From positions 1 to 64,000 of IMG/VR virus record IMGVR_UViG_3300042475_001686: DNA of 64,000 nt; one strand, given 5' to 3'. Position 1 is the first letter of the stretch. Each line of letters begins with the position of its first letter. The translations under genes and the position numbers were made by a program. This DNA comes from a virus. Below the pieces are notes generated by a model that searched no databases, was not told where the DNA came from, and saw only the letters and a list, made by a program, of their open reading frames with translations. Below are positions 3,957 through 58,880 of the stretch, one piece after another.

Positions 3957-4667
3957 TCACCCTGTTACCGTATTATCTTTTACAGAAAGTCTTAATGTCT
4001 TCACTTCATGAGAACCTAAAGACTCTCCCTTTTCATTTACTGCATCTCTATACCAGTCTGTCCACTGCCCAGATGAATTGACAACCTGTGCTGCCTGCCC
4101 ATAGTCTGACAGAGCCTTAAGCCTTAAGCCACCTTCATCAGTATAATTATTAATCTCGATAGAGGTATTGTTTAAGTGAGTTAGAGAAATAGGAATAATT
4201 GTAGCAATTGGAGTTCCTGCCTTTATTACAGTCTCAACATTTGCCCTTTTTGCCTTAATAGCAAGTGGTAATGGATTATCATAAAATGATGTGCTAATTA
4301 AATTTGATAATGTTTCAAAGTCTTCATTAAAATAATTAACTGGATTAATTGTTAAAATGCTTACATCTGGATCTGTTCTAAATACCAAAGATGTATTGAG
4401 ACTTACTGTAGATTGACCTCTTCCAGCATAGGAACCTTCTGGACTCGTAATAGTTATATGTTGATCTGTTTGATCATTAATACCGTCCCATGTAAATACT
4501 ATATCCTGAGTACAAGAAATATTCCATCCTACGACATTAGCCTGAGTTACTGGAAAACATCTGTATGCATGCTTTTCAGAAGTTACATCCATCCAATCTC
4601 TTTTTATAGACATTGGTTCTATTTTGAAAATTCCACCATGCATTTTTTCTACAGATATATTAAACAT
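3957..4667 (-). CDS. conserved phage protein, DUF6065-like
   Basis: RDWMD..HAYRCFPVTQAN..GW motif, typically found beside phage oxygenase clusters. Confidence 0.55.
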   Translation of the reverse strand: MFNISVEKMHGGIFKIEPMSIKRDWMDVTSEKHAYRCFPVTQANVVGWNISCTQDIVFTWDGINDQTDQHITITSPEGSYAGRGQSTVSLNTSLVFRTDPDVSILTINPVNYFNEDFETLSNLISTSFYDNPLPLAIKAKRANVETVIKAGTPIATIIPISLTHLNNTSIEINNYTDEGGLRLKALSDYGQAAQVVNSSGQWTDWYRDAVNEKGESLGSHEVKTLRLSVKDNTVTG

Positions 4668-5350
4668 TATTCATTTTCCCACTTTGGATCATACATGTCT
4701 GGAGTATGAAACTTTTTGCTATAGTCTAGCATTGTTACAATAGAATATTTTGTTCCAGAGTGAACTGGCATTGCTTGATGTGGATACATAAAGTTAGAAG
4801 GGAAGATATATAAATCTCCTGCCTTTGGTTTAATATTTAAGTCCTGTAATCTAAAATATAACTCTCCGCCATCGTAATCATCATTGATGTATGCTACCAA
4901 AGATACGGTACAGTTATACGAATAACCGTGGTCATGATGTTCCTTGAAGTGCTGACCTGGACCATACTTAATAAAGTTAAATGCTTCCCAATACTTTAGT
5001 GGCATAATGTTGTAATCTCTACGATAGTCATCAACTGCTGGAGCCTGTGCATCATAAACATCCTGCCATATTTTTTGTAACAATAAAGACTCTTCGCTTG
5101 GATCTGACTCAATGTCTGTCTTTTTATACTTAAAATCATAGCAATCACGATAGTCTGGCATTAATTGCTGATACCCAACATATGCTGGTAGCCAGTGATA
5201 TCTTTTTCCTTCTGGAGATAACTCTCCCCAAGGTGCTGGACTGCCCAAGACATCTTCCAATCTATTTATAATATCTAAATTTGGTTTAATAACATTTCTA
5301 TAAACCGTTATTCCATGACCAAGACTTTCTTTTTCTGTCCAAGTTGACAT
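4667..5350 (-). CDS. 2OG-Fe(II) oxygenase, P4H-like
   Basis: HHDH, YINDDYDGGELYF, FPSNFMYPH..GTKY; start moved to MSTW (GGAG RBS). Confidence 0.85.
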   Translation of the reverse strand: MSTWTEKESLGHGITVYRNVIKPNLDIINRLEDVLGSPAPWGELSPEGKRYHWLPAYVGYQQLMPDYRDCYDFKYKKTDIESDPSEESLLLQKIWQDVYDAQAPAVDDYRRDYNIMPLKYWEAFNFIKYGPGQHFKEHHDHGYSYNCTVSLVAYINDDYDGGELYFRLQDLNIKPKAGDLYIFPSNFMYPHQAMPVHSGTKYSIVTMLDYSKKFHTPDMYDPKWENE

Positions 5351-8464: not shown

Positions 8465-9556
8465 TTAACCCTGGCAGTTTCCACAATTGCTTGAAGAGCA
8501 CCATAGTGATGGTGGGCAACCCCAAGGATTATTGGACTGGTTTCCGCATTCGCCACTGCAGGATGGGGCTGACACGAAAGAAGGTGGGAAGAACGGGAAG
8601 AATGGGAAGAACGGTGGGAAGAACGGGAAGAACGGTGGGAAGAACGGGAAGAATGGGAAGAATGGTGGGAAGAACGGGAAGAACGGTGGGAAGAACGGGA
8701 AGAATGGGAAATAAGGTGGGAAGAACGGGAAGAATGGTGGGAAGAATGGGAAGAACGGGAAGTAAGGTGGGAAGAACGGGAAGTAAGGTGGGAAGAATGG
8801 GAAGAAGGGTGGGAAGAATGGTGGGAAGAATGGGAAGAATGGTGGGAAGAACGGGAAGAATGGTGGGAAGAATGGGAAGAAGGGTGGGAAAAATGGAGGG
8901 AAAAACGGCGGGAAGAATGGAAAGAACGGCGGGGTAGTATTAACAGTTCCAGTTGTAGCACCTGCAGATGATCCATTACCATTAATTGCAACAATAGTAT
9001 ATGTCTGAGATCCTGGTGCTGCTCCTGGGTCATTAGCATCATATGATGTTGCAGCAGCAGAAATACCAGTGTAACTTGATCCATCTGAACCAGTAATTGT
9101 ATAGGAGGTAATTGCTTTACCACCAGTTGCTGGTGCTGTCCATGTTATTCTGTTTGTATTTGCAGACAAAGCAGATCCAGAAGGTGATCCTGGTGTGTTT
9201 GGTACAGTTGTTACTGTAATTGATCCAGTTGTATCTGTTGCTGGGTTTGAGTTTGCTGTACCAGCATTATTCTTACCTCTAACAGTAACTGTATAAGTTC
9301 CAGCAGGAAGTCCAGTTAGTGTATATGAGGTTGAAGATGATCCTGTCTCAACTGTGCTAGTTGCTGGGTTTGTAGTAACTACATAAGTTGTTGCTGCAGG
9401 AGAAGTAGCAGGCAAAGTCCAAGATAAGTTAATCGCACCATTATTCCAACCTCTACCAGTTCCTACATCTGTACCAGTTAGACCTGTTACTGGATCTGGT
9501 TGTAAAAAGTTATCCTGTGCTGATGACTTAATACCTTTTCTTTTGCTTGTTGCCAT
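8465..9556 (-). CDS. virion-associated protein: two FN3-like domains, Pro/Phe repeat, Cys-rich tail
   Basis: LSWT.P..YVV..YTLTGLPAGTYTVTVRGKN FN3 pattern twice; long (PPFF/PFF)n tract; C-terminal CSGECG..CPPSLWC..CGNC. Confidence 0.7.
   Translation of the reverse strand: MATSKRKGIKSSAQDNFLQPDPVTGLTGTDVGTGRGWNNGAINLSWTLPATSPAATTYVVTTNPATSTVETGSSSTSYTLTGLPAGTYTVTVRGKNNAGTANSNPATDTTGSITVTTVPNTPGSPSGSALSANTNRITWTAPATGGKAITSYTITGSDGSSYTGISAAATSYDANDPGAAPGSQTYTIVAINGNGSSAGATTGTVNTTPPFFPFFPPFFPPFFPPFFPFFPPFFPFFPPFFPFFPPFFPPFFPFFPPYFPFFPPYFPFFPFFPPFFPFFPPYFPFFPFFPPFFPFFPPFFPFFPFFPPFFPFFPPFFPFFPFFPPSFVSAPSCSGECGNQSNNPWGCPPSLWCSSSNCGNCQG
8580..8935. repeat. coding minisatellite of 9-nt (GGGAAGAAY) and 12-nt (GGTGGGAAGAAY) units
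   Basis: Directly visible; encodes PFF/PPFF on the minus strand. Confidence 0.95.
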
Positions 9557-16635: not shown

Positions 16636-18009
16636 TTAGAATGTACAGTTACCACATGTAGTAGAGGTACAGTACAGTGAAGGTGGACAGTCATATCCTG
16701 CCCCACCGCCTGCTTGGCTTCCGCATTCTAGTGTACAAGTACTTGTAAATGTTGGTGGGAAGAAAGGACTCTGGAACGTTGGTGGGAAGAATGGTGTAAC
16801 ACTAAACGTTGGTGGGAAGAAAGGACTCTGGAACGTTGGTGGGAAGAATGGCGCCTGGAATGTTGGTGGGAAGAATGGCGCCTGGAATGTTGGTGGGAAG
16901 AATGGCGCCTGGAATGTTGGTGGGAAGAATGGCGCCTGGAAGTTCGGAGGGAAGAATGGATTAACCGTACATGTAGGAGTTCCTGATGCTTGTGTAGGAC
17001 CACAGACCCATCCAATTGGAGGATATCCGTTTGCGTTTTCTTGAGCAGCATATGCATCAGCACAGGACGATGTTGTTGAGAAAGGACCGTTTGGATTGTT
17101 ATTGAAATCACAGTATCCGTAGTAACTTGTTGTAGTCTGTTGGAACGTTGGTGGGAAGAATGGTGACTGGAAAGTTGGTGGGAAGAACGGTGTAAATGTA
17201 GGTGGGAAGAACGGAGGAGTGGTGCAAGATGTTATCGGAGTTGTTGTAACAGAGCCAGTCAATGATGCACTTATTGTGAAACAGAAAGTCTCAGCAGCAT
17301 TAGTTGCCTCTGTTGAGTTTGCAGCAGTAACAGATCCAACAGTATTATCATCGCAGCAGAAGTAGTATGTTGTTGTTCCTGAACTAAAGAATGGTGGGAA
17401 GAATGGAGGGAAGAATGGTGGGAAGAATGGAGTAATGGTGCATTCTGGAGTTCCATTTTGTGCTGTTGGTCCGCAAACCCATCCAATTGGTGGGTATCCA
17501 TTTGCGTTTTCCTGAATAGTATATGCTTCAGCACAGGACAATGTTGTTGAGAAAGGACCAACAGGGTTATTGGCTAAATCACAGTATCCGTAATAATTTA
17601 ATACTTGCTGGAACGTTGGAGGGAAGAACGGTGTAAATGTAGGTGGGAAGAACGGTGACTGGAATGTAGGTGGGAAGAACGGTGACTGGAATGTAGGTGG
17701 GAAGAACGGTGACTGGAATGTAGGTGGGAAGAACGGTGACTGGAATGTAGGTGGGAAGAATGGAGGGGCAACATAAGTATAATAAACAAAGGTTACATCA
17801 GTATCATAATCAACTAATGTGTCTGCTACTGGAACTTGAGAAGCAACCTTATTATCAAGTTGTGAATCTGAAGTAACTATAGAAGAGTCACCAACATTCT
17901 TAAGCCCTGAGTTTGTTATTGTGGTAATTGCTACGTTCTTTAAAAGACCTACAAGTTGCGGGACCTTTACCATTCCCTTTGCTAAAAACGGCCATAATGA
18001 ACTTAGCAT
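16636..18009 (-). CDS. PASTA-domain protein with PFFPPTFQ(S/A) repeats and Cys modules
   Basis: VKVPQLVG..VASQVP.ADTLV PASTA pattern; 27-nt repeats; duplicated YYGYCD..GYPPIGWVCGPT module; C-terminal ECG..CPPSLYC..CGNC. Confidence 0.7.
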   Translation of the reverse strand: MLSSLWPFLAKGMVKVPQLVGLLKNVAITTITNSGLKNVGDSSIVTSDSQLDNKVASQVPVADTLVDYDTDVTFVYYTYVAPPFFPPTFQSPFFPPTFQSPFFPPTFQSPFFPPTFQSPFFPPTFTPFFPPTFQQVLNYYGYCDLANNPVGPFSTTLSCAEAYTIQENANGYPPIGWVCGPTAQNGTPECTITPFFPPFFPPFFPPFFSSGTTTYYFCCDDNTVGSVTAANSTEATNAAETFCFTISASLTGSVTTTPITSCTTPPFFPPTFTPFFPPTFQSPFFPPTFQQTTTSYYGYCDFNNNPNGPFSTTSSCADAYAAQENANGYPPIGWVCGPTQASGTPTCTVNPFFPPNFQAPFFPPTFQAPFFPPTFQAPFFPPTFQAPFFPPTFQSPFFPPTFSVTPFFPPTFQSPFFPPTFTSTCTLECGSQAGGGAGYDCPPSLYCTSTTCGNCTF

Positions 18010-29692: not shown

Positions 29693-29777
29693 GGTAAATC
29701 ACACCCACGCTACGGCGTGTCGAATTGACATTTTTACAAAAGTATGAAATAATAAAATTATAAAGAAAGGTCGAAAA

Positions 29778-29924: not shown

Positions 29925-30005
29925 ATCACAAAAACTAACGGCGTGTCGATTTGATTTCTACGCCAAAATATGAAATAATAGGATACATAAAGAAAGGTAA
30001 AAACT

Positions 30006-30785: not shown

Positions 30786-31263
30786 TGAGAATTCTAACTA
30801 CACTTGTTCAAATTGGTTTAGTGCTTTCAATTTATTTTATAATTAGAAATGCCACGAAAGAAAACTAAATTTAGTAAATGCGAAATCTGCGGTAGAATTT
30901 TTATCGCAGATCTAAAGTGTTTTGTGTGCGCTGCTAAAAATGCTTGAACTTTCAACTAAAATCGCCTAGGGGGTTTTCCACAGGTTTATCCACAATGTGA
31001 ATTACGTTACAATGTGAATTTCCCCACAGATTTATCGGCGTGTCGGATTGAAAATGTCAGTAGAAAATGATAGGCTGGAAGCCTGAAAATAAAGAAAGGA
31101 TAACTAATGAAAAAAAATGTTCTAATTAGTTTTGTTACTGAAGCAGACTCAGATTTATCTGCTGTATTTGCTCTAAATAAAACTTTTCTAAATTTGCCTG
31201 AAAACGAATTAGCAAAGTTTGATGTGTTTGATGTTGTCGATGTTGTAGAGGAGGCTCAATAAA

Positions 31264-31761: not shown

Positions 31762-31832
31762 AGGGCGTGGGGGATTTGATTTTGTCAGTCCCCCATGATA
31801 AGGTTAGATTATTGAAAGAAAGGAAATAAAAA

Positions 31833-33865: not shown

Positions 33866-34051
33866 GGGACAGATGAAAATAATACTATTATTAGGGTGGG
33901 CTATGCTCCTATGGGTGCTTTTCTATCCCCCCCTAAAGTGACCTATCTCACAATCTCAAAATGTGAGAAATGTCAGAAATAACTTGACACAGCAAAAAAT
34001 AAATGTCATAATAATAACAAGTAAGAAAACAACTAACAAAGGAGAAAGAAA

Positions 34052-34219
34052 ATGGCAGTAGCAACAGCAACCTACAAGGTAGGCGACCTATACACCTCAC
34101 AGAAGTCAAAGGTTACAGGCACTATCACAGAAATCAAGCCAAACAAGGACGGCTCAACTGTTCGTGTCAAACTTGATGTCAATGGCACACCTCGCTGGAC
34201 AACTTGGACAGCAAAGTAA
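34052..34219 (+). CDS. 55-aa SH3/KOW-like protein (not in the ORF track)
   Basis: YKVGDLYTSQKSKVTGTI..VRVKLDVNGTPRW; AGGAG RBS. Confidence 0.6.
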   Translation: MAVATATYKVGDLYTSQKSKVTGTITEIKPNKDGSTVRVKLDVNGTPRWTTWTAK

Positions 34220-34235
34220 TTCCTAATACAGGAAA

Positions 34236-34264
34236 AGTCCTGAGCATGACTACTAAAACTGCTC
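34236..34264 (+). ncRNA. 3'-UTR H-type pseudoknot motif, copy 1
   Basis: AGTC-CTGAGCAT-GACT-ACTAAAAC-TGCTC. Confidence 0.7.
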
Positions 34265-34331
34265 ACTTGACTTTCTAACTGAAAAATGTTAGACTATAAA
34301 TAACCCAAAACCCATAAGAAAGGAAAACAAA

Positions 34332-34754
34332 ATGGCAAGAAGCCAAAAAGCAATTAGCGTGAAAATCGCTACGACTAAAGTTATCAAGGCTTTAGAAACT
34401 AAGTTAGCACAAATCCAAAAGGATAAGGCTAATCAAGCAACTAACGAGGAGAAGTTCAACAAGGCTCACGAAAAGTGGTCTAAAGATGTTGCTAAACTTT
34501 CTCTCAACGCTATCAACAAGGCAGAGGACTTATCTGCTAATCTAAGATACAATGGCATGGTTCATGTTTCTTTTGATTTGCCTAAAGGTTCTATTGACCT
34601 ACCTGCTCAACCTGAAAAGGATTTTGACACTTATCATGAGTGGCAATACAAAGAAATGGTAGATGAAATTGAGAACGCTATTCGTATTCTCAAGATGACA
34701 GATGAGGAAGTAGTTTCTACCTCAACTTACAACGCTATCGCCCGATACTTGTAA
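34332..34754 (+). CDS. hypothetical coiled-coil protein
   Basis: TTGACT..TAGACT promoter, AGAAAGGA RBS. Confidence 0.6.
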   Translation: MARSQKAISVKIATTKVIKALETKLAQIQKDKANQATNEEKFNKAHEKWSKDVAKLSLNAINKAEDLSANLRYNGMVHVSFDLPKGSIDLPAQPEKDFDTYHEWQYKEMVDEIENAIRILKMTDEEVVSTSTYNAIARYL

Positions 34755-34759
34755 TTCAC

Positions 34760-34786
34760 TCTCCTGAGCATGAGATAAAACTGCTC
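34760..34786 (+). ncRNA. pseudoknot motif, copy 2
   Basis: TCTC-CTGAGCAT-GAGA-TAAAAC-TGCTC. Confidence 0.7.
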
Positions 34787-34815
34787 ACTAACAAAATAGA
34801 CAGAAAGGAAAACAA

Positions 34816-34983
34816 ATGACACTCGGAGGCTACACTTATCAGGTAGGAGATTTATTTACTACCAGCAAGACAGGCGTTACAGGACGAATTGAAAAGTTTG
34901 TTCCACAAAGTAAAAATGTAACTCGTGTAATGCTTCGTTTGGCAAATGGTCAGCAACGATTTGCTATGGTAAAGACTTACTAA
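34816..34983 (+). CDS. 55-aa paralog of 34052..34219 (not in the ORF track)
   Basis: YQVGDLFTTSKTGVTGRI..TRVMLRLANGQQRF. Confidence 0.6.
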   Translation: MTLGGYTYQVGDLFTTSKTGVTGRIEKFVPQSKNVTRVMLRLANGQQRFAMVKTY

Positions 34984-35068
34984 TAAAATTGTTACTCTGT
35001 GTTCAAGGCAGACTGCGACACAAAATCGAATTGTGTTGATCTTTCTGCGAAAGTCCCTTGAGTAACCT

Positions 35069-35096
35069 TACTCCTGAGCATGAGTATAAACTGCTC
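35069..35096 (+). ncRNA. pseudoknot motif, copy 3
   Basis: TACTC-CTGAGCAT-GAGTA-TAAAC-TGCTC. Confidence 0.7.
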
Positions 35097-35224
35097 CCCT
35101 CTCAAAAAATCGCCTAGGCAATGTGATTTAAAACACAGTCCACTATGTGAGATAGTTTACGTTCTCGATTTGATTTCCCCTCTAAAAAATGTTATGATTA
35201 TATTATCTAAGAAAGGATAAATAA

Positions 35225-35488
35225 ATGATTAGCACCGCAATAGCAATACAAATGGCAACGCAGGACGCAGTTCATGACGAGAGTGTTATGGATTTGGCTT
35301 CTGCTCTTTATCATCACAGAAATGAAATGAGCGACGAGGACTTTGCTAAAGCAATGTTTATGTATTCTGCTCATCTATCAGCAATGACCGCTACTTTAGT
35401 TACTCATGCCTGCTTGACTGAAAGCCAACTAAATGATATGCTTGAAACAATAAAGGAAATGGATTCCATGGGAAAGGATATTGAATAA
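35225..35488 (+). CDS. hypothetical protein
   Basis: AGAAAGGA RBS. Confidence 0.55.
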   Translation: MISTAIAIQMATQDAVHDESVMDLASALYHHRNEMSDEDFAKAMFMYSAHLSAMTATLVTHACLTESQLNDMLETIKEMDSMGKDIE

Positions 35489-35928
35489 TGGAAACAACAG
35501 AAACCGTAGTACCCGAACACTACAACTCCAATCAACTCGTAACTTATAAGGTTATTGAGAATGGTGCCGCTACATATCCAACCGTAAAGGTTGTGGACCT
35601 TGAGTGGGACCTGTATCAGAATCGTTCTAATGCAGCCAGTCTGTCTCAATACATTAATAAAGTAAATCAGTTAGAGAATCGTCTTCCTGATTATCTTGAT
35701 ATGGATTCAGAAGATATTGTCTCTGATATCTGCAGCATTTTTGGATTCAACCCAACTAAGGAAATTGAATTCGAGGCAACAGCCACAATTACTGGTCGTG
35801 TACTTGTACCACTTAGTGATTTAGCAAACTTTGATATCGACGACATAGACTTAACCGTTTATGCAGATTCACATTCACACGACGTTGAAGTTGATGTAGA
35901 AGTTGACCACATCTCTCGTGTAGACTAA
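35488..35928 (+). CDS. acidic hypothetical protein
   Basis: Translationally coupled to the upstream gene. Confidence 0.55.
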   Translation: METTETVVPEHYNSNQLVTYKVIENGAATYPTVKVVDLEWDLYQNRSNAASLSQYINKVNQLENRLPDYLDMDSEDIVSDICSIFGFNPTKEIEFEATATITGRVLVPLSDLANFDIDDIDLTVYADSHSHDVEVDVEVDHISRVD

Positions 35929-36009
35929 TAAATTTCTTGGCCTTCATGAAAGGGGCCAAGATCTGCAAGCATTGCTCCTCTTTCATCCTTTCTTTAGGGA
36001 GCATGCAAG

Positions 36010-36038
36010 GGACCTGAGCACGTCCACGTAAACTGCTC
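36010..36038 (+). ncRNA. pseudoknot motif, copy 4
   Basis: GGAC-CTGAGCAC-GTCC-ACGTAAAC-TGCTC. Confidence 0.7.
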
Positions 36039-36173
36039 TTTAAAAATTGCCTAGCCCGCAAAATCTTATTTTGTCAAATTTACGGCGTGTCGGGACATTT
36101 ACGTACCAGGATTTGCAATTGTCAGAGGGTTATGCTAAGATTGATAAATCACTTACAGAAAGGACAAAAAATA

Positions 36174-37190
36174 ATGGCGCATGAATTAGAAACGCAAAAT
36201 GGCGTTGCTTCTTTCGCATCATTCCGTGAACCTGCTTGGCATGGTCTTGGCACAGTATTCACGGAAGAAAAAACAACAGCAGAAATGTTATCTGCTGCTA
36301 ATCTAAACAATTGGAATGTTCGTCTTGAGGACGTAAATGTTCCATCTCACTTATCGTCAGATAAATCTTATCAATATGTTGTTCGCACTAACCCTACGGA
36401 TAACACACAGACCGATATTCTCGGTGTTGTTGGTGAGCGTTATCATGTTTTACAGAATGAAGATTTATTCTCATTCGGTGATAATATTCTTGACGGCGGA
36501 GGTCGTTGGGAAACTGCTGGCTCTATTCGTGGAGGTCGTGTTGTATTCGGTTCTCTTGCTCTTGAGCGTGAAACTGTATTAGACCCAAATGGTGTTGCGG
36601 ATAAGGTCAAAACTTATCTTCTCATCAATACATCACATGACGGCTCTATTGCTATTCAAGCAAGTATAACACCTGTTCGTGTTGTATGCGCTAACACTCT
36701 AAACCTTGCTCTTGGCTCTAAGCGTGGGCGTAATGCTATCAAGCAATCTTTCAAGATTCGCCACACACAGACCGCTAATGGTAAAGTTCAAATTGCTCGT
36801 GAGGCTCTTGGTCTTGCTAATGCTTACATGGACGCTTTCGACATCATGGCTAAACAAATGATTGAGAAAGAAATCACAGCGCAACAGTTCAATGATATTG
36901 TTCTCGCTGCGTATCCTAAGCCTGATGAAGAAAAGAAGGGCGCACTTACTCGTTGGACTAACAAGGTTGATGTTATCAATGACATCTACACAGGTGAGTT
37001 CAATGGCATGATTGCTGGCAATGCGTGGGGTGCTTTCAATGCTCTTACTGAACGCCTTGATTGGCATCGTTCTGCTCGTGGTGGAAATACTGAGGCAATG
37101 CTCGCTGCTGCTTCTGGTTTTGACGCAACAATTACAGCAGAAAAAAATCGCTTGCTAACTGTTGTAAAAAATACTTTGCAACTCGCATAG
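36174..37190 (+). CDS. DUF932-family phage/plasmid protein
   Basis: MAHELE..PAWHGLG..ETAGSIRGGRVVF..NTSHDGS..TPVRVVCANTL. Confidence 0.8.
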   Translation: MAHELETQNGVASFASFREPAWHGLGTVFTEEKTTAEMLSAANLNNWNVRLEDVNVPSHLSSDKSYQYVVRTNPTDNTQTDILGVVGERYHVLQNEDLFSFGDNILDGGGRWETAGSIRGGRVVFGSLALERETVLDPNGVADKVKTYLLINTSHDGSIAIQASITPVRVVCANTLNLALGSKRGRNAIKQSFKIRHTQTANGKVQIAREALGLANAYMDAFDIMAKQMIEKEITAQQFNDIVLAAYPKPDEEKKGALTRWTNKVDVINDIYTGEFNGMIAGNAWGAFNALTERLDWHRSARGGNTEAMLAAASGFDATITAEKNRLLTVVKNTLQLA

Positions 37191-37194
37191 CAAA

Positions 37195-37222
37195 ATTTCC
37201 TGAGCATGAAATAAAACTGCTC
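37195..37222 (+). ncRNA. pseudoknot motif, copy 5
   Basis: ATTTC-CTGAGCAT-GAAAT-AAAAC-TGCTC. Confidence 0.7.
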
Positions 37223-37336
37223 AATTTTTATTTTTCAATTTGCAGATCATAACAAAAAATGCCTAGCAAAACCGACAAATCGGACATTGTATTTTTGTAA
37301 ATATTTTATTACGTAGCACTTGCTTTTTTTGCTGGA

Positions 37337-37552
37337 TTGTGGGATAATAAATATATGACAATAGACGAACTAACAACCCACATATTTAAAATGCGTAATG
37401 GTTTGGAAGAAGACCTACGCAATCTTGCTGATGAAATGGAAGCACTTGACCCTGCTGCTAAAGACTTTGCTGACCTTGACTTTGAATATAATTTTATTAA
37501 TGGACAGGTAGCGGCATTCAATTACGTACTTACTAAGATAGGCCTACAATGA
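37337..37552 (+). CDS. hypothetical protein (real start probably MTIDEL)
   Basis: ORF follows a TTGCTT..GATAAT promoter. Confidence 0.45.
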   Translation: MWDNKYMTIDELTTHIFKMRNGLEEDLRNLADEMEALDPAAKDFADLDFEYNFINGQVAAFNYVLTKIGLQ

Positions 37553-57363: not shown

Positions 57364-57659
57364 AGCATTTCCTCTGGTTGCTTTCTAGCAGTAGTAATAA
57401 TTGCTTTTGTGCCTTCCCATCTTACACGACCCCTGCAACCGACATTATACTTTGTGTCTCCTTCATATTGTGAAGAAACAGCATAGGCATACCCATGCAA
57501 CTCAAAATCACTGGCCAAAGTTTGATTGCCATTTATAAATATTCTCCACACCATAGGATCTTCTGGACCAGCCTTTGTGTTAAATCTTAAAATAATATCA
57601 TCATAAGGCCTAAGCCATCTATCCTTAACTATGGCCCAAATATAATTTATTTTGTTCAT
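57360..57659 (-). CDS. hypothetical protein
   Basis: LRFNTK..WRIF. Confidence 0.5.
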   Translation of the reverse strand: MNKINYIWAIVKDRWLRPYDDIILRFNTKAGPEDPMVWRIFINGNQTLASDFELHGYAYAVSSQYEGDTKYNVGCRGRVRWEGTKAIITTARKQPEEML

Positions 57660-58586: not shown

Positions 58587-58880
58587 TCATTTTTGATCCT
58601 CATCAAGCGTTAAATTCTTCCATGTATTACCCCAGTCAGATTCTGTCTTATGGCTGTTAAACTCTTTAGATATGGCTCCAGATTCTAAATAAATACCGCC
58701 CCATACTCCATACTCTTTGCTTGATACACCTACAGCAAAACAAGTTTTAACAACTGGACATTGCATACATAGCGCATCAATTGCTGGTCTTAATAACTCA
58801 TCCTCTTCATATTTATCAAAGAATAAGTTAGTATCATAATCCAAGCAAGTCGCTGCGTCTTTCCATTTAAGTTTGTGCAT
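58587..58880 (-). CDS. whiB: WhiB-family transcription factor
   Basis: WKDAATC..FF..CMQCPVVKTC..YGVWGG. Confidence 0.9.
   Translation of the reverse strand: MHKLKWKDAATCLDYDTNLFFDKYEEDELLRPAIDALCMQCPVVKTCFAVGVSSKEYGVWGGIYLESGAISKEFNSHKTESDWGNTWKNLTLDEDQK

Follow-up and report, generated by a model that had tools for sequence, protein, structure and literature searches.

RNAIII and the Rsa RNAs of Staphylococcus carry UCCC loops, and the 6C RNA of actinobacteria carries C-rich loops. In phages P1 and P7, the c4 antisense RNA sits 5' of its sole target and is excised by RNase P. Phage T4 shuts off its early mRNAs through the nuclease RegB, which cuts GGAG, and the repressor RegA. In the plant-virus coremin, an exoribonuclease-resistant RNA (xrRNA) that blocks a 5'–3' exonuclease, the available part of the source describes a pair of hairpins (3 and 4 bp), a YGAD loop on the 5' hairpin and a conserved spacer of 10 nt (PMC6546385).

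The phage element analysed here has points in common with each of these systems. It shares with RNAIII, the Rsa RNAs and 6C RNA a pyrimidine motif complementary to Shine–Dalgarno sequences, displayed in a stable hairpin loop that is conserved while the stems vary. However, it has no sequence or Rfam relation to them (no match over 34100–37400 at E values up to 10), its loop is U-rich instead of C-rich, and it sits in a 3' UTR before a pseudoknot, with no promoter or terminator of its own found. As with c4, a phage RNA derived from the target's own transcript would use its loops to pair with a ribosome binding region and block translation, but the present element lies 3'-terminally, and its matches extend to an entire class of start sites. 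As in the RegB/RegA system, early genes would be singled out by a feature of their ribosome binding sites (RBSs), except that T4 acts by proteins and here an RNA would act by pairing. The likeness to coremin concerns the pseudoknot only: a small knot, an A-rich stretch with UAAAC, and flanking hairpins that vary and covary. As far as the available text of that source goes, the phage pseudoknot has other conserved letters, the UAAAC stretch alone being shared, and the second hairpin of our element has no counterpart there (PMC6546385). We found no description of the element in the literature on anti-Shine–Dalgarno phage sRNAs, coremin and pseudoknots, phage sRNAs and early genes, or freshwater actinophages, covered mostly at abstract level.

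The window, i.e., the whole 64,000-nt stretch analysed, is the first 64 kb of one 117,492-bp virus record (36.7% G+C). It holds seven tRNA genes, and Rfam 15, run over the whole window at gathering score, returned seven tRNAs and nothing else. A WhiB-family gene (58692–58865, minus strand) scored 45.6 bits against a cut-off of 23.6; because WhiB is a marker of actinobacteria and their phages, the host of this 117-kb phage is most likely a freshwater actinobacterium. A DNA search with 35400–36400 against 50,697 catalogued phage records gave no match, and the protein of the DUF932 gene next to the element matched 555 records, all below 60% identity and the best in Streptomyces phages, which shed no light on the element. 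All relatives recovered were metagenomic virus contigs. Elsewhere in the window, minus-strand ORFs contain long arrays of 9-, 12- and 27-nt repeats (GGGAAGAAxGGT...) at 8525–8905 and 16745–17790, which look like the Gly-X-Y (collagen-like) repeats of fibre proteins.

The element occupies the 245-nt gap between the plus-strand genes at 35488–35928 and 36174–37190. The features of the locus are as follows.

35170..35198, plus strand: sigma-70-like promoter of a two-gene early operon, TTGATT-17-TATGAT with TG; consensus match only
35209..35218, plus strand: RBS AAGAAAGGAT of the gene starting at 35225 (first in the operon), complementary to the H2 loop over 10 nt without mismatch (exact-match search)
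35225–35488, plus strand: first operon gene, start at 35225
35488..35928, plus strand: second operon gene, 146 aa, TAA stop at 35926–35928, 7 nt before H1
35935..35961, plus strand: hairpin H1, 8-bp covarying stem with arms TCTTGGCC (35935–35942) and GGCCAAGA (35954–35961)
35943–35953, plus strand: H1 loop TTCATGAAAGG (RNA UUCAUGAAAGG), of which the AUGAAAGG part is invariant
35969..36006, plus strand: hairpin H2, 4 bp, 1-nt 5' bulge, 6 bp, 17-nt loop
35969–35979, plus strand: H2 5' arm GCAT(T)GCTCCT, read from the sequence
35980–35996, plus strand: H2 loop CTTTCATCCTTTCTTTA, 17 nt
35980..35994, plus strand: H2 loop core CUUUCAUCCUUUCUU, 15 nt, invariant, with UCCUUUCU as its anti-Shine–Dalgarno-like portion
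35997–36006, plus strand: H2 3' arm GGGAGCATGC, read from the sequence
36010..36038, plus strand: H-type pseudoknot, copy 4 of 6, stem 1 GGAC/GUCC, stem 2 GAGCA/UGCUC, third loop A-rich
36113..36141, plus strand: DUF932 promoter, TTGCAA, 17 nt, TGC-TAAGAT (TTGCAA-17-TGCTAAGAT), between the pseudoknot and the DUF932 start
36157..36164, plus strand: AGAAAGGA RBS of the DUF932 gene, an 8-nt loop complement
36174–37190, plus strand: DUF932 gene, 164.9 bits

This H1–H2–pseudoknot feature is real, conserved and uncatalogued. The initial annotation had described two hairpins followed by pseudoknot copy 4 at 35935–36038, an anatomy that the sequence bears out, and had called the loop a reverse complement, which is equally correct (the complement is TAAAGAAAGGATGAAAG). 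In copy 4, GGAC at 36010–36013 pairs with GTCC at 36022–36025, and GAGCA at 36016–36020 with TGCTC at 36034–36038. The minimum-free-energy fold of the plus strand recovered H1, H2 and stem 2 at −34.9 kcal/mol (z −2.35, equalled by 5 of 200 shuffles). Pfam and PHROG searches gave no family or function for either gene of the early operon (35225–35488 and 35488–35928).

To place the element among relatives, we retrieved 418 related loci through the DUF932 protein and took the best 80 (83–95% identity) for comparison. The core of the H2 loop was present 5' of the DUF932 gene in 11 of them and, with two bases deleted, in a variant (L120); counting this variant, the H1+H2 module occurs in just 12 of the 80 loci, meaning that it is an accessory part. 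Three further H2 loci (L016, L096 and L102) came from a pseudoknot scan. Among the 68 loci without H2, a short GGGG-loop hairpin replaces the module where the standard pseudoknot is kept, and some have variant pseudoknots or other elements. Just 5' of the pseudoknot and overlapping the stop codon, several loci in the L124–L199 range (e.g., L147, L160 and L177) carry a hairpin of 6 bp whose loop is GGGG(G) (TAGTAGGGGGCTACTA or GATAGGGGGCTATC); a TCCC(C)T run, which could pair with that loop, follows the pseudoknot in many loci of this range.

Covariation was pronounced. Across H1, H2 and the pseudoknot in 15 sequences, 93.1% of 391 cells were paired, against a shuffled mean of 75.5%; none of 500 shuffles reached the observed value, registers shifted along the alignment gave 34–42%, and both sides had changed in 21 of the 27 pairs. 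For H2 alone, in 14 ungapped sequences, the corresponding figures were 98.6% of 140 cells, a shuffled mean of 79.3%, 0/500 shuffles, 29–44% in shifted registers, and both sides changed in 8 of 10 pairs. The H2 geometry (4 bp, one-base 5' bulge, 6 bp, loop of 17–18 nt) was kept in 23 of 26 folded sequences, the exceptions being L321, with an internal loop, and L336 and L144, in which the bulge is missing. The bulge itself is variable in base, and its position agrees in 13 of 14 ungapped sequences; in the remaining one, L335, it comes one base earlier.

The loop behaves differently from the stems. There are at least 15 distinct H2 stem sequences, and the columns of the 5' arm hold two to four different bases each in a set selected on 13 core bases. 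We also ran a search blind to H2, in which only ATGAAAGG (from the H1 loop) and GACCTGAGCA (the pseudoknot start), 40–70 nt downstream, were fixed. It returned 36 distinct sequences, of which 13 were unrelated and 23 were family members (the window included); the 15-nt core CTTTCATCCTTTCTT was identical in all 23, on many different stems. The earlier proposal of an anti-Shine–Dalgarno-like loop thus gains a sequence under strong purifying selection. Conversely, 26 regions selected on H2 plus pseudoknot contained H1 in 24 cases, with ATGAAAGG every time.

The bare 15-mer is found in at least 117 stretches of viral contigs. Among the matches listed, the newly examined loci placed it on a hairpin only in seven family members and in L291, the others being coding sequence or start sites on the opposite strand. 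L291 belongs to an unrelated virus contig of 58% G+C and carries the identical 15-nt loop on a 12-bp, G+C-rich hairpin (reverse strand, about 4650–4700), ~45 nt ahead of the start of a gene; the interval between this hairpin and the gene contains GAGAAAGGG and AAAGGAA. A scan of bacterial genome contigs for loop and pseudoknot gave 13 matches in unrelated bacteria, none with the hairpin or the pseudoknot. By our estimate this is about chance level, and the scan yielded no prophage copy and no clue to the host.

The element is to be read on the plus strand. H2 stems contain seven G·U pairs on that strand, and no A·C juxtapositions were seen (by eye, not counted by script). Folding energies of H2 do not separate the strands: over 26 sequences the means were −12.6 kcal/mol (plus) and −13.6 kcal/mol (minus), the plus strand being lower in 5 of 26, so the strand argument uses the G·U pairs of the stems only. 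The genes around the element are all on the plus strand, and in all six pseudoknot copies the direction is that of the local genes. A reading frame stays open through the element on the minus strand in 8 of 26 relatives and on the plus strand in 12 of 26; by our own reading, plus-strand frames through the loops also differ between subgroups.

The initial annotation had named, among the findings that would undo it, a sequence that is simply the RBS of a translated minus-strand ORF (35813..36061 frame); we examined this reading both for that frame and for the ATG in the loop complement. Such an ORF is indeed listed, with 82 aa and a TTG start, and the loop complement reads AAGAAAGGATG. However, the ATG of the loop complement directly touches the GG of the putative Shine–Dalgarno sequence, leaving zero spacing, and arithmetic on the coordinates gives it a different frame from that of the 82-aa ORF. 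The peptide it would start ends within nine codons in 5 of 26 relatives, the minus-strand frame through H1 differs by subgroup (PFMK vs FHEP), and any open minus frame from H1 to the pseudoknot is found in only 8 of 26. Substitutions in the H2 stem preserve base pairs and not codons, and the neighbouring genes run on the opposite strand. With zero spacing, short peptides, subgroup-dependent frames and so few open frames, we rejected this reading, which is almost certainly wrong.

The pseudoknot at the end of the element belongs to a larger family. The motif CCTGAGCA-N8-10-AACTGCTC occurs six times in the window, against 0.00 expected from 100 shuffles, and is absent from the rest of the 117,492-bp genome. 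Besides copy 4, the copies are:

34239..34264, plus strand: copy 1, followed by a promoter at 34267–34295
34763..34786, plus strand: copy 2, a motif match
35073..35096, plus strand: copy 3, followed by the promoter at 35170–35198
37199..37222, plus strand: copy 5, 9 nt past the DUF932 stop codon
52137..52160, minus strand: copy 6, in the same direction as the local minus-strand genes

A pattern scan of viral contigs found at least 145 pseudoknot matches in at least 119 stretches. The gap was 8 nt in 106 of the 145 matches listed, which is not expected by chance, and the positions of stem 1 paired in 93, 89 and 76% of the 140 distinct viral matches listed (21–58% in shifted registers). Stem 2 variants in relatives, noted by eye, were GGGCA/TGCCC, AAGCA/TGCTT and GGCCA/TGGCC. 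The motif therefore has two stems in pseudoknot order, both covarying, as an H-type pseudoknot should. It is 24–28 nt long, is placed after stop codons of early genes, and is common in viral contigs (loci L001–L119), where a tRNA gene often begins just a few bases further on; ACC directly follows it in 23 of the 140 distinct matches listed.

Copies 1–5 each lie 8–90 nt past a stop codon. Downstream there is either a new promoter (within ~100 nt of copies 1, 3 and 4, and ~470 nt after copy 5) or, for copy 2, the next gene directly with no promoter between. Promoter-like sites were found by scanning at 33984, 34267, 35170 and 37694. The DUF932 promoter at 36113–36141 scores below the threshold of that scan; it is kept in 26/26 aligned intergenic regions and was seen by eye in the 80 loci. 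Between the pseudoknot and this conserved promoter, the stretch 36040–36110 and its homologues in 26 loci contain repeated operator-like words (TGTCAAnTTTACG, GTGTCGGGAC or ATGTCCGATTT), which suggests a DNA-binding regulator of the DUF932 promoter.

From this layout of gene, pseudoknot and promoter, H1, H2 and the pseudoknot close the transcription unit beginning at 35170 (genes 35225–35488 and 35488–35928) and make up the 3' UTR of this two-gene early operon (35225–35928), on the plus strand. It begins 7 nt past the stop codon, so any sRNA would need excision from the mRNA. No promoter-like site ends between 35900 and 35935, right before H1. The AT-rich stop region of relatives sometimes reads TATAAT, at a spacing of 12–17 nt from TTGAC-like codons that is not conserved. 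None of eight terminator-like sites falls in 35929–36100, and the tails 3' of the pseudoknot are not consistently U-rich. With neither a conserved promoter before H1 nor a terminator-like site, a discrete sRNA is not indicated, and the separate trans-acting RNA of the initial annotation is unsupported. The element does resemble regulatory RNAs of the 3'-UTR type, in that it lies between the stop codon and the mRNA 3' end and its seed is the most conserved part.

Nine RNA-library runs were matched by a small share of their words, and four were compared at 85% likeness. This material consists of assembled contigs of relatives and carries no ends, strand or level; the low contig depth over 35738–36271 therefore proves nothing on expression. 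The highest summed contig depth in these runs, again not an expression measure, was at 34136–34936.

The loop complements RBSs of the AGAAAGGA type, which is found almost only in the early plus-strand block at 28.8–39.6 kb. Exact complements of 9–12 nt occur on ten RBSs, all at 29.0–35.3 kb, so that the loop has defined candidate targets at ten start sites. Besides that of the operon's own first gene, they include:

31090..31101, plus strand: RBS of gene 31107, 12 nt, the longest exact loop complement in the genome
33131..33141, plus strand: RBS of gene 33146, 11 nt
29761..29770, plus strand: RBS of gene 29778, 10 nt
29988..29997, plus strand: RBS of gene 30006, 10 nt
31815..31824, plus strand: RBS of gene 31833, 10 nt

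The four matches cited earlier, at 29761, 29988, 33131 and 31090, are thus all correct. Among 165 crudely called genes, 15 have a match of at least 8 nt before the start; 14 of them lie at 28.8–39.6 kb, and the fifteenth, at 57656, is not a Shine–Dalgarno match. Outside the early block, RBSs read AAGGAG(G) or AGGAGG, or there is no Shine–Dalgarno sequence. About nine genes have an extended −10 element (TGnTATAAT or TATACT) only 6–9 nt before the start codon and hence look leaderless (e.g., 7591−, 15658−, 23324−, 26134−, 40476+ and 112093−), in agreement with the leaderless phage genes invoked in the initial annotation.

In terms of duplex energy, −9 kcal/mol or lower was reached at 17 of the 30 block genes vs 14 of 145 elsewhere, and the nine best start sites were all at 29.7–35.5 kb. 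With shuffled loops, 25 genes on average (at most 52) reached −9 kcal/mol, vs 31 observed, meaning that a pyrimidine-rich loop of any kind pairs with purine-rich starts; the total count of predicted targets is therefore uninformative and we dropped it. Apart from H2, no hairpin with a stem of at least 7 bp on the early block's sense strand has TCCTTTC in its loop; 20 such heptamers occur in the whole genome. AGAAAGG-type start sites number 2–5 per 4 kb in all 12 H2 loci, and 3–6 in no fewer than 21 of the 68 H2-less loci. A match of at least 9 nt to the RBS of the own operon was seen in 9 of 12 loci with H2 vs 15 of 68 without, a contrast confounded by phylogeny. As both comparisons track relatedness, they prove no functional tie.

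The UCCUUUCU part of the H2 loop equals what we take to be the last eight bases of actinobacterial 16S rRNA. Judging from this identity, the loop would copy the end of the 16S tail and not its core: AGAAAGGA sites would pair with the extreme tail end and AAGGAGG sites with the core. The latter, CCUCCU, is carried in the last 11 nt of 16S rRNA according to the available part of the source (PMC12274833).

We consider that the element most plausibly works by pairing with Shine–Dalgarno-type sequences, in cis, in trans or both. Our leading interpretation, to which we give a probability of roughly 40%, is an anti-Shine–Dalgarno riboregulator borne on a 3' UTR and selective for early-class start sites. 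The tail of the operon, read on the plus strand, folds as H1, H2 and the pseudoknot, the last presumably marking the ends of early transcription units in this phage family. H2 displays its 15-nt pyrimidine loop, which would pair with purine-rich Shine–Dalgarno-type sequences. A kissing contact is possible between CUUUCAU, the 5' half of this loop, and AUGAAAG in the loop of H1; the 3' half, UCCUUUCUU, fits the AGAAAGGA class of start sites, including those of the operon's own first gene (10 nt) and of the next gene (8 nt). Once the mRNA, or a 3' piece of it that resists nucleases, accumulated, it would compete with 30S subunits at early-class start sites; early translation would be damped in vivo, and AAGGAGG-class and leaderless genes would escape. 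A further version, which we regard as unlikely, takes the element as an RNA copy of the 16S 3' tail, acting either as a class-selective early switch or as a decoy that shields ribosomes from host nucleases that cut the anti-Shine–Dalgarno sequence in abortive infection.

If the loop does cover early-class starts, this would be an RNA-only timing of gene expression in a lytic phage, tied to a two-tier RBS code within one genome, and it would join, as a defined RNA, the very few regulatory RNAs on record for phages of Actinobacteria and uncultured freshwater bacteria. Even if its role is structural, the element is a new covarying RNA module joined to a widespread phage pseudoknot that is absent from RNA catalogues.

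Almost as probable as the riboregulator, though still a tentative proposal, is a purely structural role at the 3' end of the RNA. Here H1 and H2 would kiss through their loops and stack on the pseudoknot; the compact block so formed would stop exonucleases or direct processing where the early transcript ends, and the anti-Shine–Dalgarno likeness would be incidental to pairing with the purine-rich loop of H1. The two invariant loops do share a perfect 7-nt Watson–Crick complement, a length attained by 0.6% of shuffles of the H1 loop (the duplex energy being −6.8 kcal/mol, with P about 0.02), and this kiss would explain the 5' half of the H2 loop equally well while leaving UCCUUUCUU free. It covers 7 of the 15 invariant loop bases, however, and the remaining 8 are exactly the anti-Shine–Dalgarno-like part. 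H1 and H2 are found together in 21 distinct contexts, and no H1 hairpin without H2 was seen by eye in 18 other contexts holding the H1-loop 9-mer; in L120 both loops are altered together, the H1 loop being replaced and the H2 loop lacking the AU of CAU. Against this, the full H2 loop is retained without H1 in L096, L144 and L291. The promoters or gene that follow copies 1–5 fit a role at transcript ends, as does the presence of some hairpin before many pseudoknot copies in viral contigs (by eye), but the module is missing from 68 of the 80 related loci.

The same loop could instead act on the adjacent gene alone. In read-through RNA, H2 would pair with the DUF932 AGAAAGGA site ~165 nt downstream and block it, while transcripts from DUF932's own promoter, which lies 3' of H2, would stay translated; genes e, soc and 49 of T4 follow the same logic of read-through masking. 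The fully conserved promoter between the pseudoknot and the DUF932 start is what such an arrangement calls for, no intrinsic terminator was found in that interval, and the DUF932 start site holds GAAAGGA in 26/26 sequences and AGAAAGGA in about 23/26 (by eye). We nevertheless find this very unlikely, as the pairing amounts to 8 bp, no better than at any early-class site, H2-less relatives have the same gene and promoter and often the same site, and termination or cleavage of the RNA may be brought about by the pseudoknot itself. Quite unlikely, too, is a decoy or protein-binding site, in which a loop that mimics the 16S 3' tail absorbs a factor directed at that tail, e.g., an infection-triggered MazF-type endoribonuclease, or binds an RNA-binding protein of phage or host. 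The bulge at its fixed place would suit recognition by a protein, and the identical loop recurs on the unrelated GC-rich stem of L291. The loop also contains UCCUU, and the available text on mycobacterial MazF toxins gives the cut sites C^ACCU and U^CCUU, one toxin cutting at the latter and another removing the terminal 11 nt of 16S rRNA with the anti-Shine–Dalgarno sequence (PMC12274833). However, the loop is without the CACCU context of the real 16S tail, no candidate protein partner was found, and the neighbouring operon genes are without family.

Some minor observations concern the surroundings of the pseudoknots. Two paralogous 55-aa genes (34052–34219 and 34816–34983) lie beside pseudoknot copies. 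In L148, L159, L183 and L194, the region 5' of DUF932 contains a small hairpin, GACAT-GTCGA-ATGTC, then TTTAAACTAGG and then a variant pseudoknot, an arrangement that resembles the coremin layout in the available part of PMC6546385. In contigs from two RNA-library runs (X1 and X9), 34754 is joined to 37196 with six other letters between, which implies that some relatives are without the 2.4 kb between pseudoknot copies 2 and 5; the pseudoknots may thus be boundaries of exchangeable gene cassettes.
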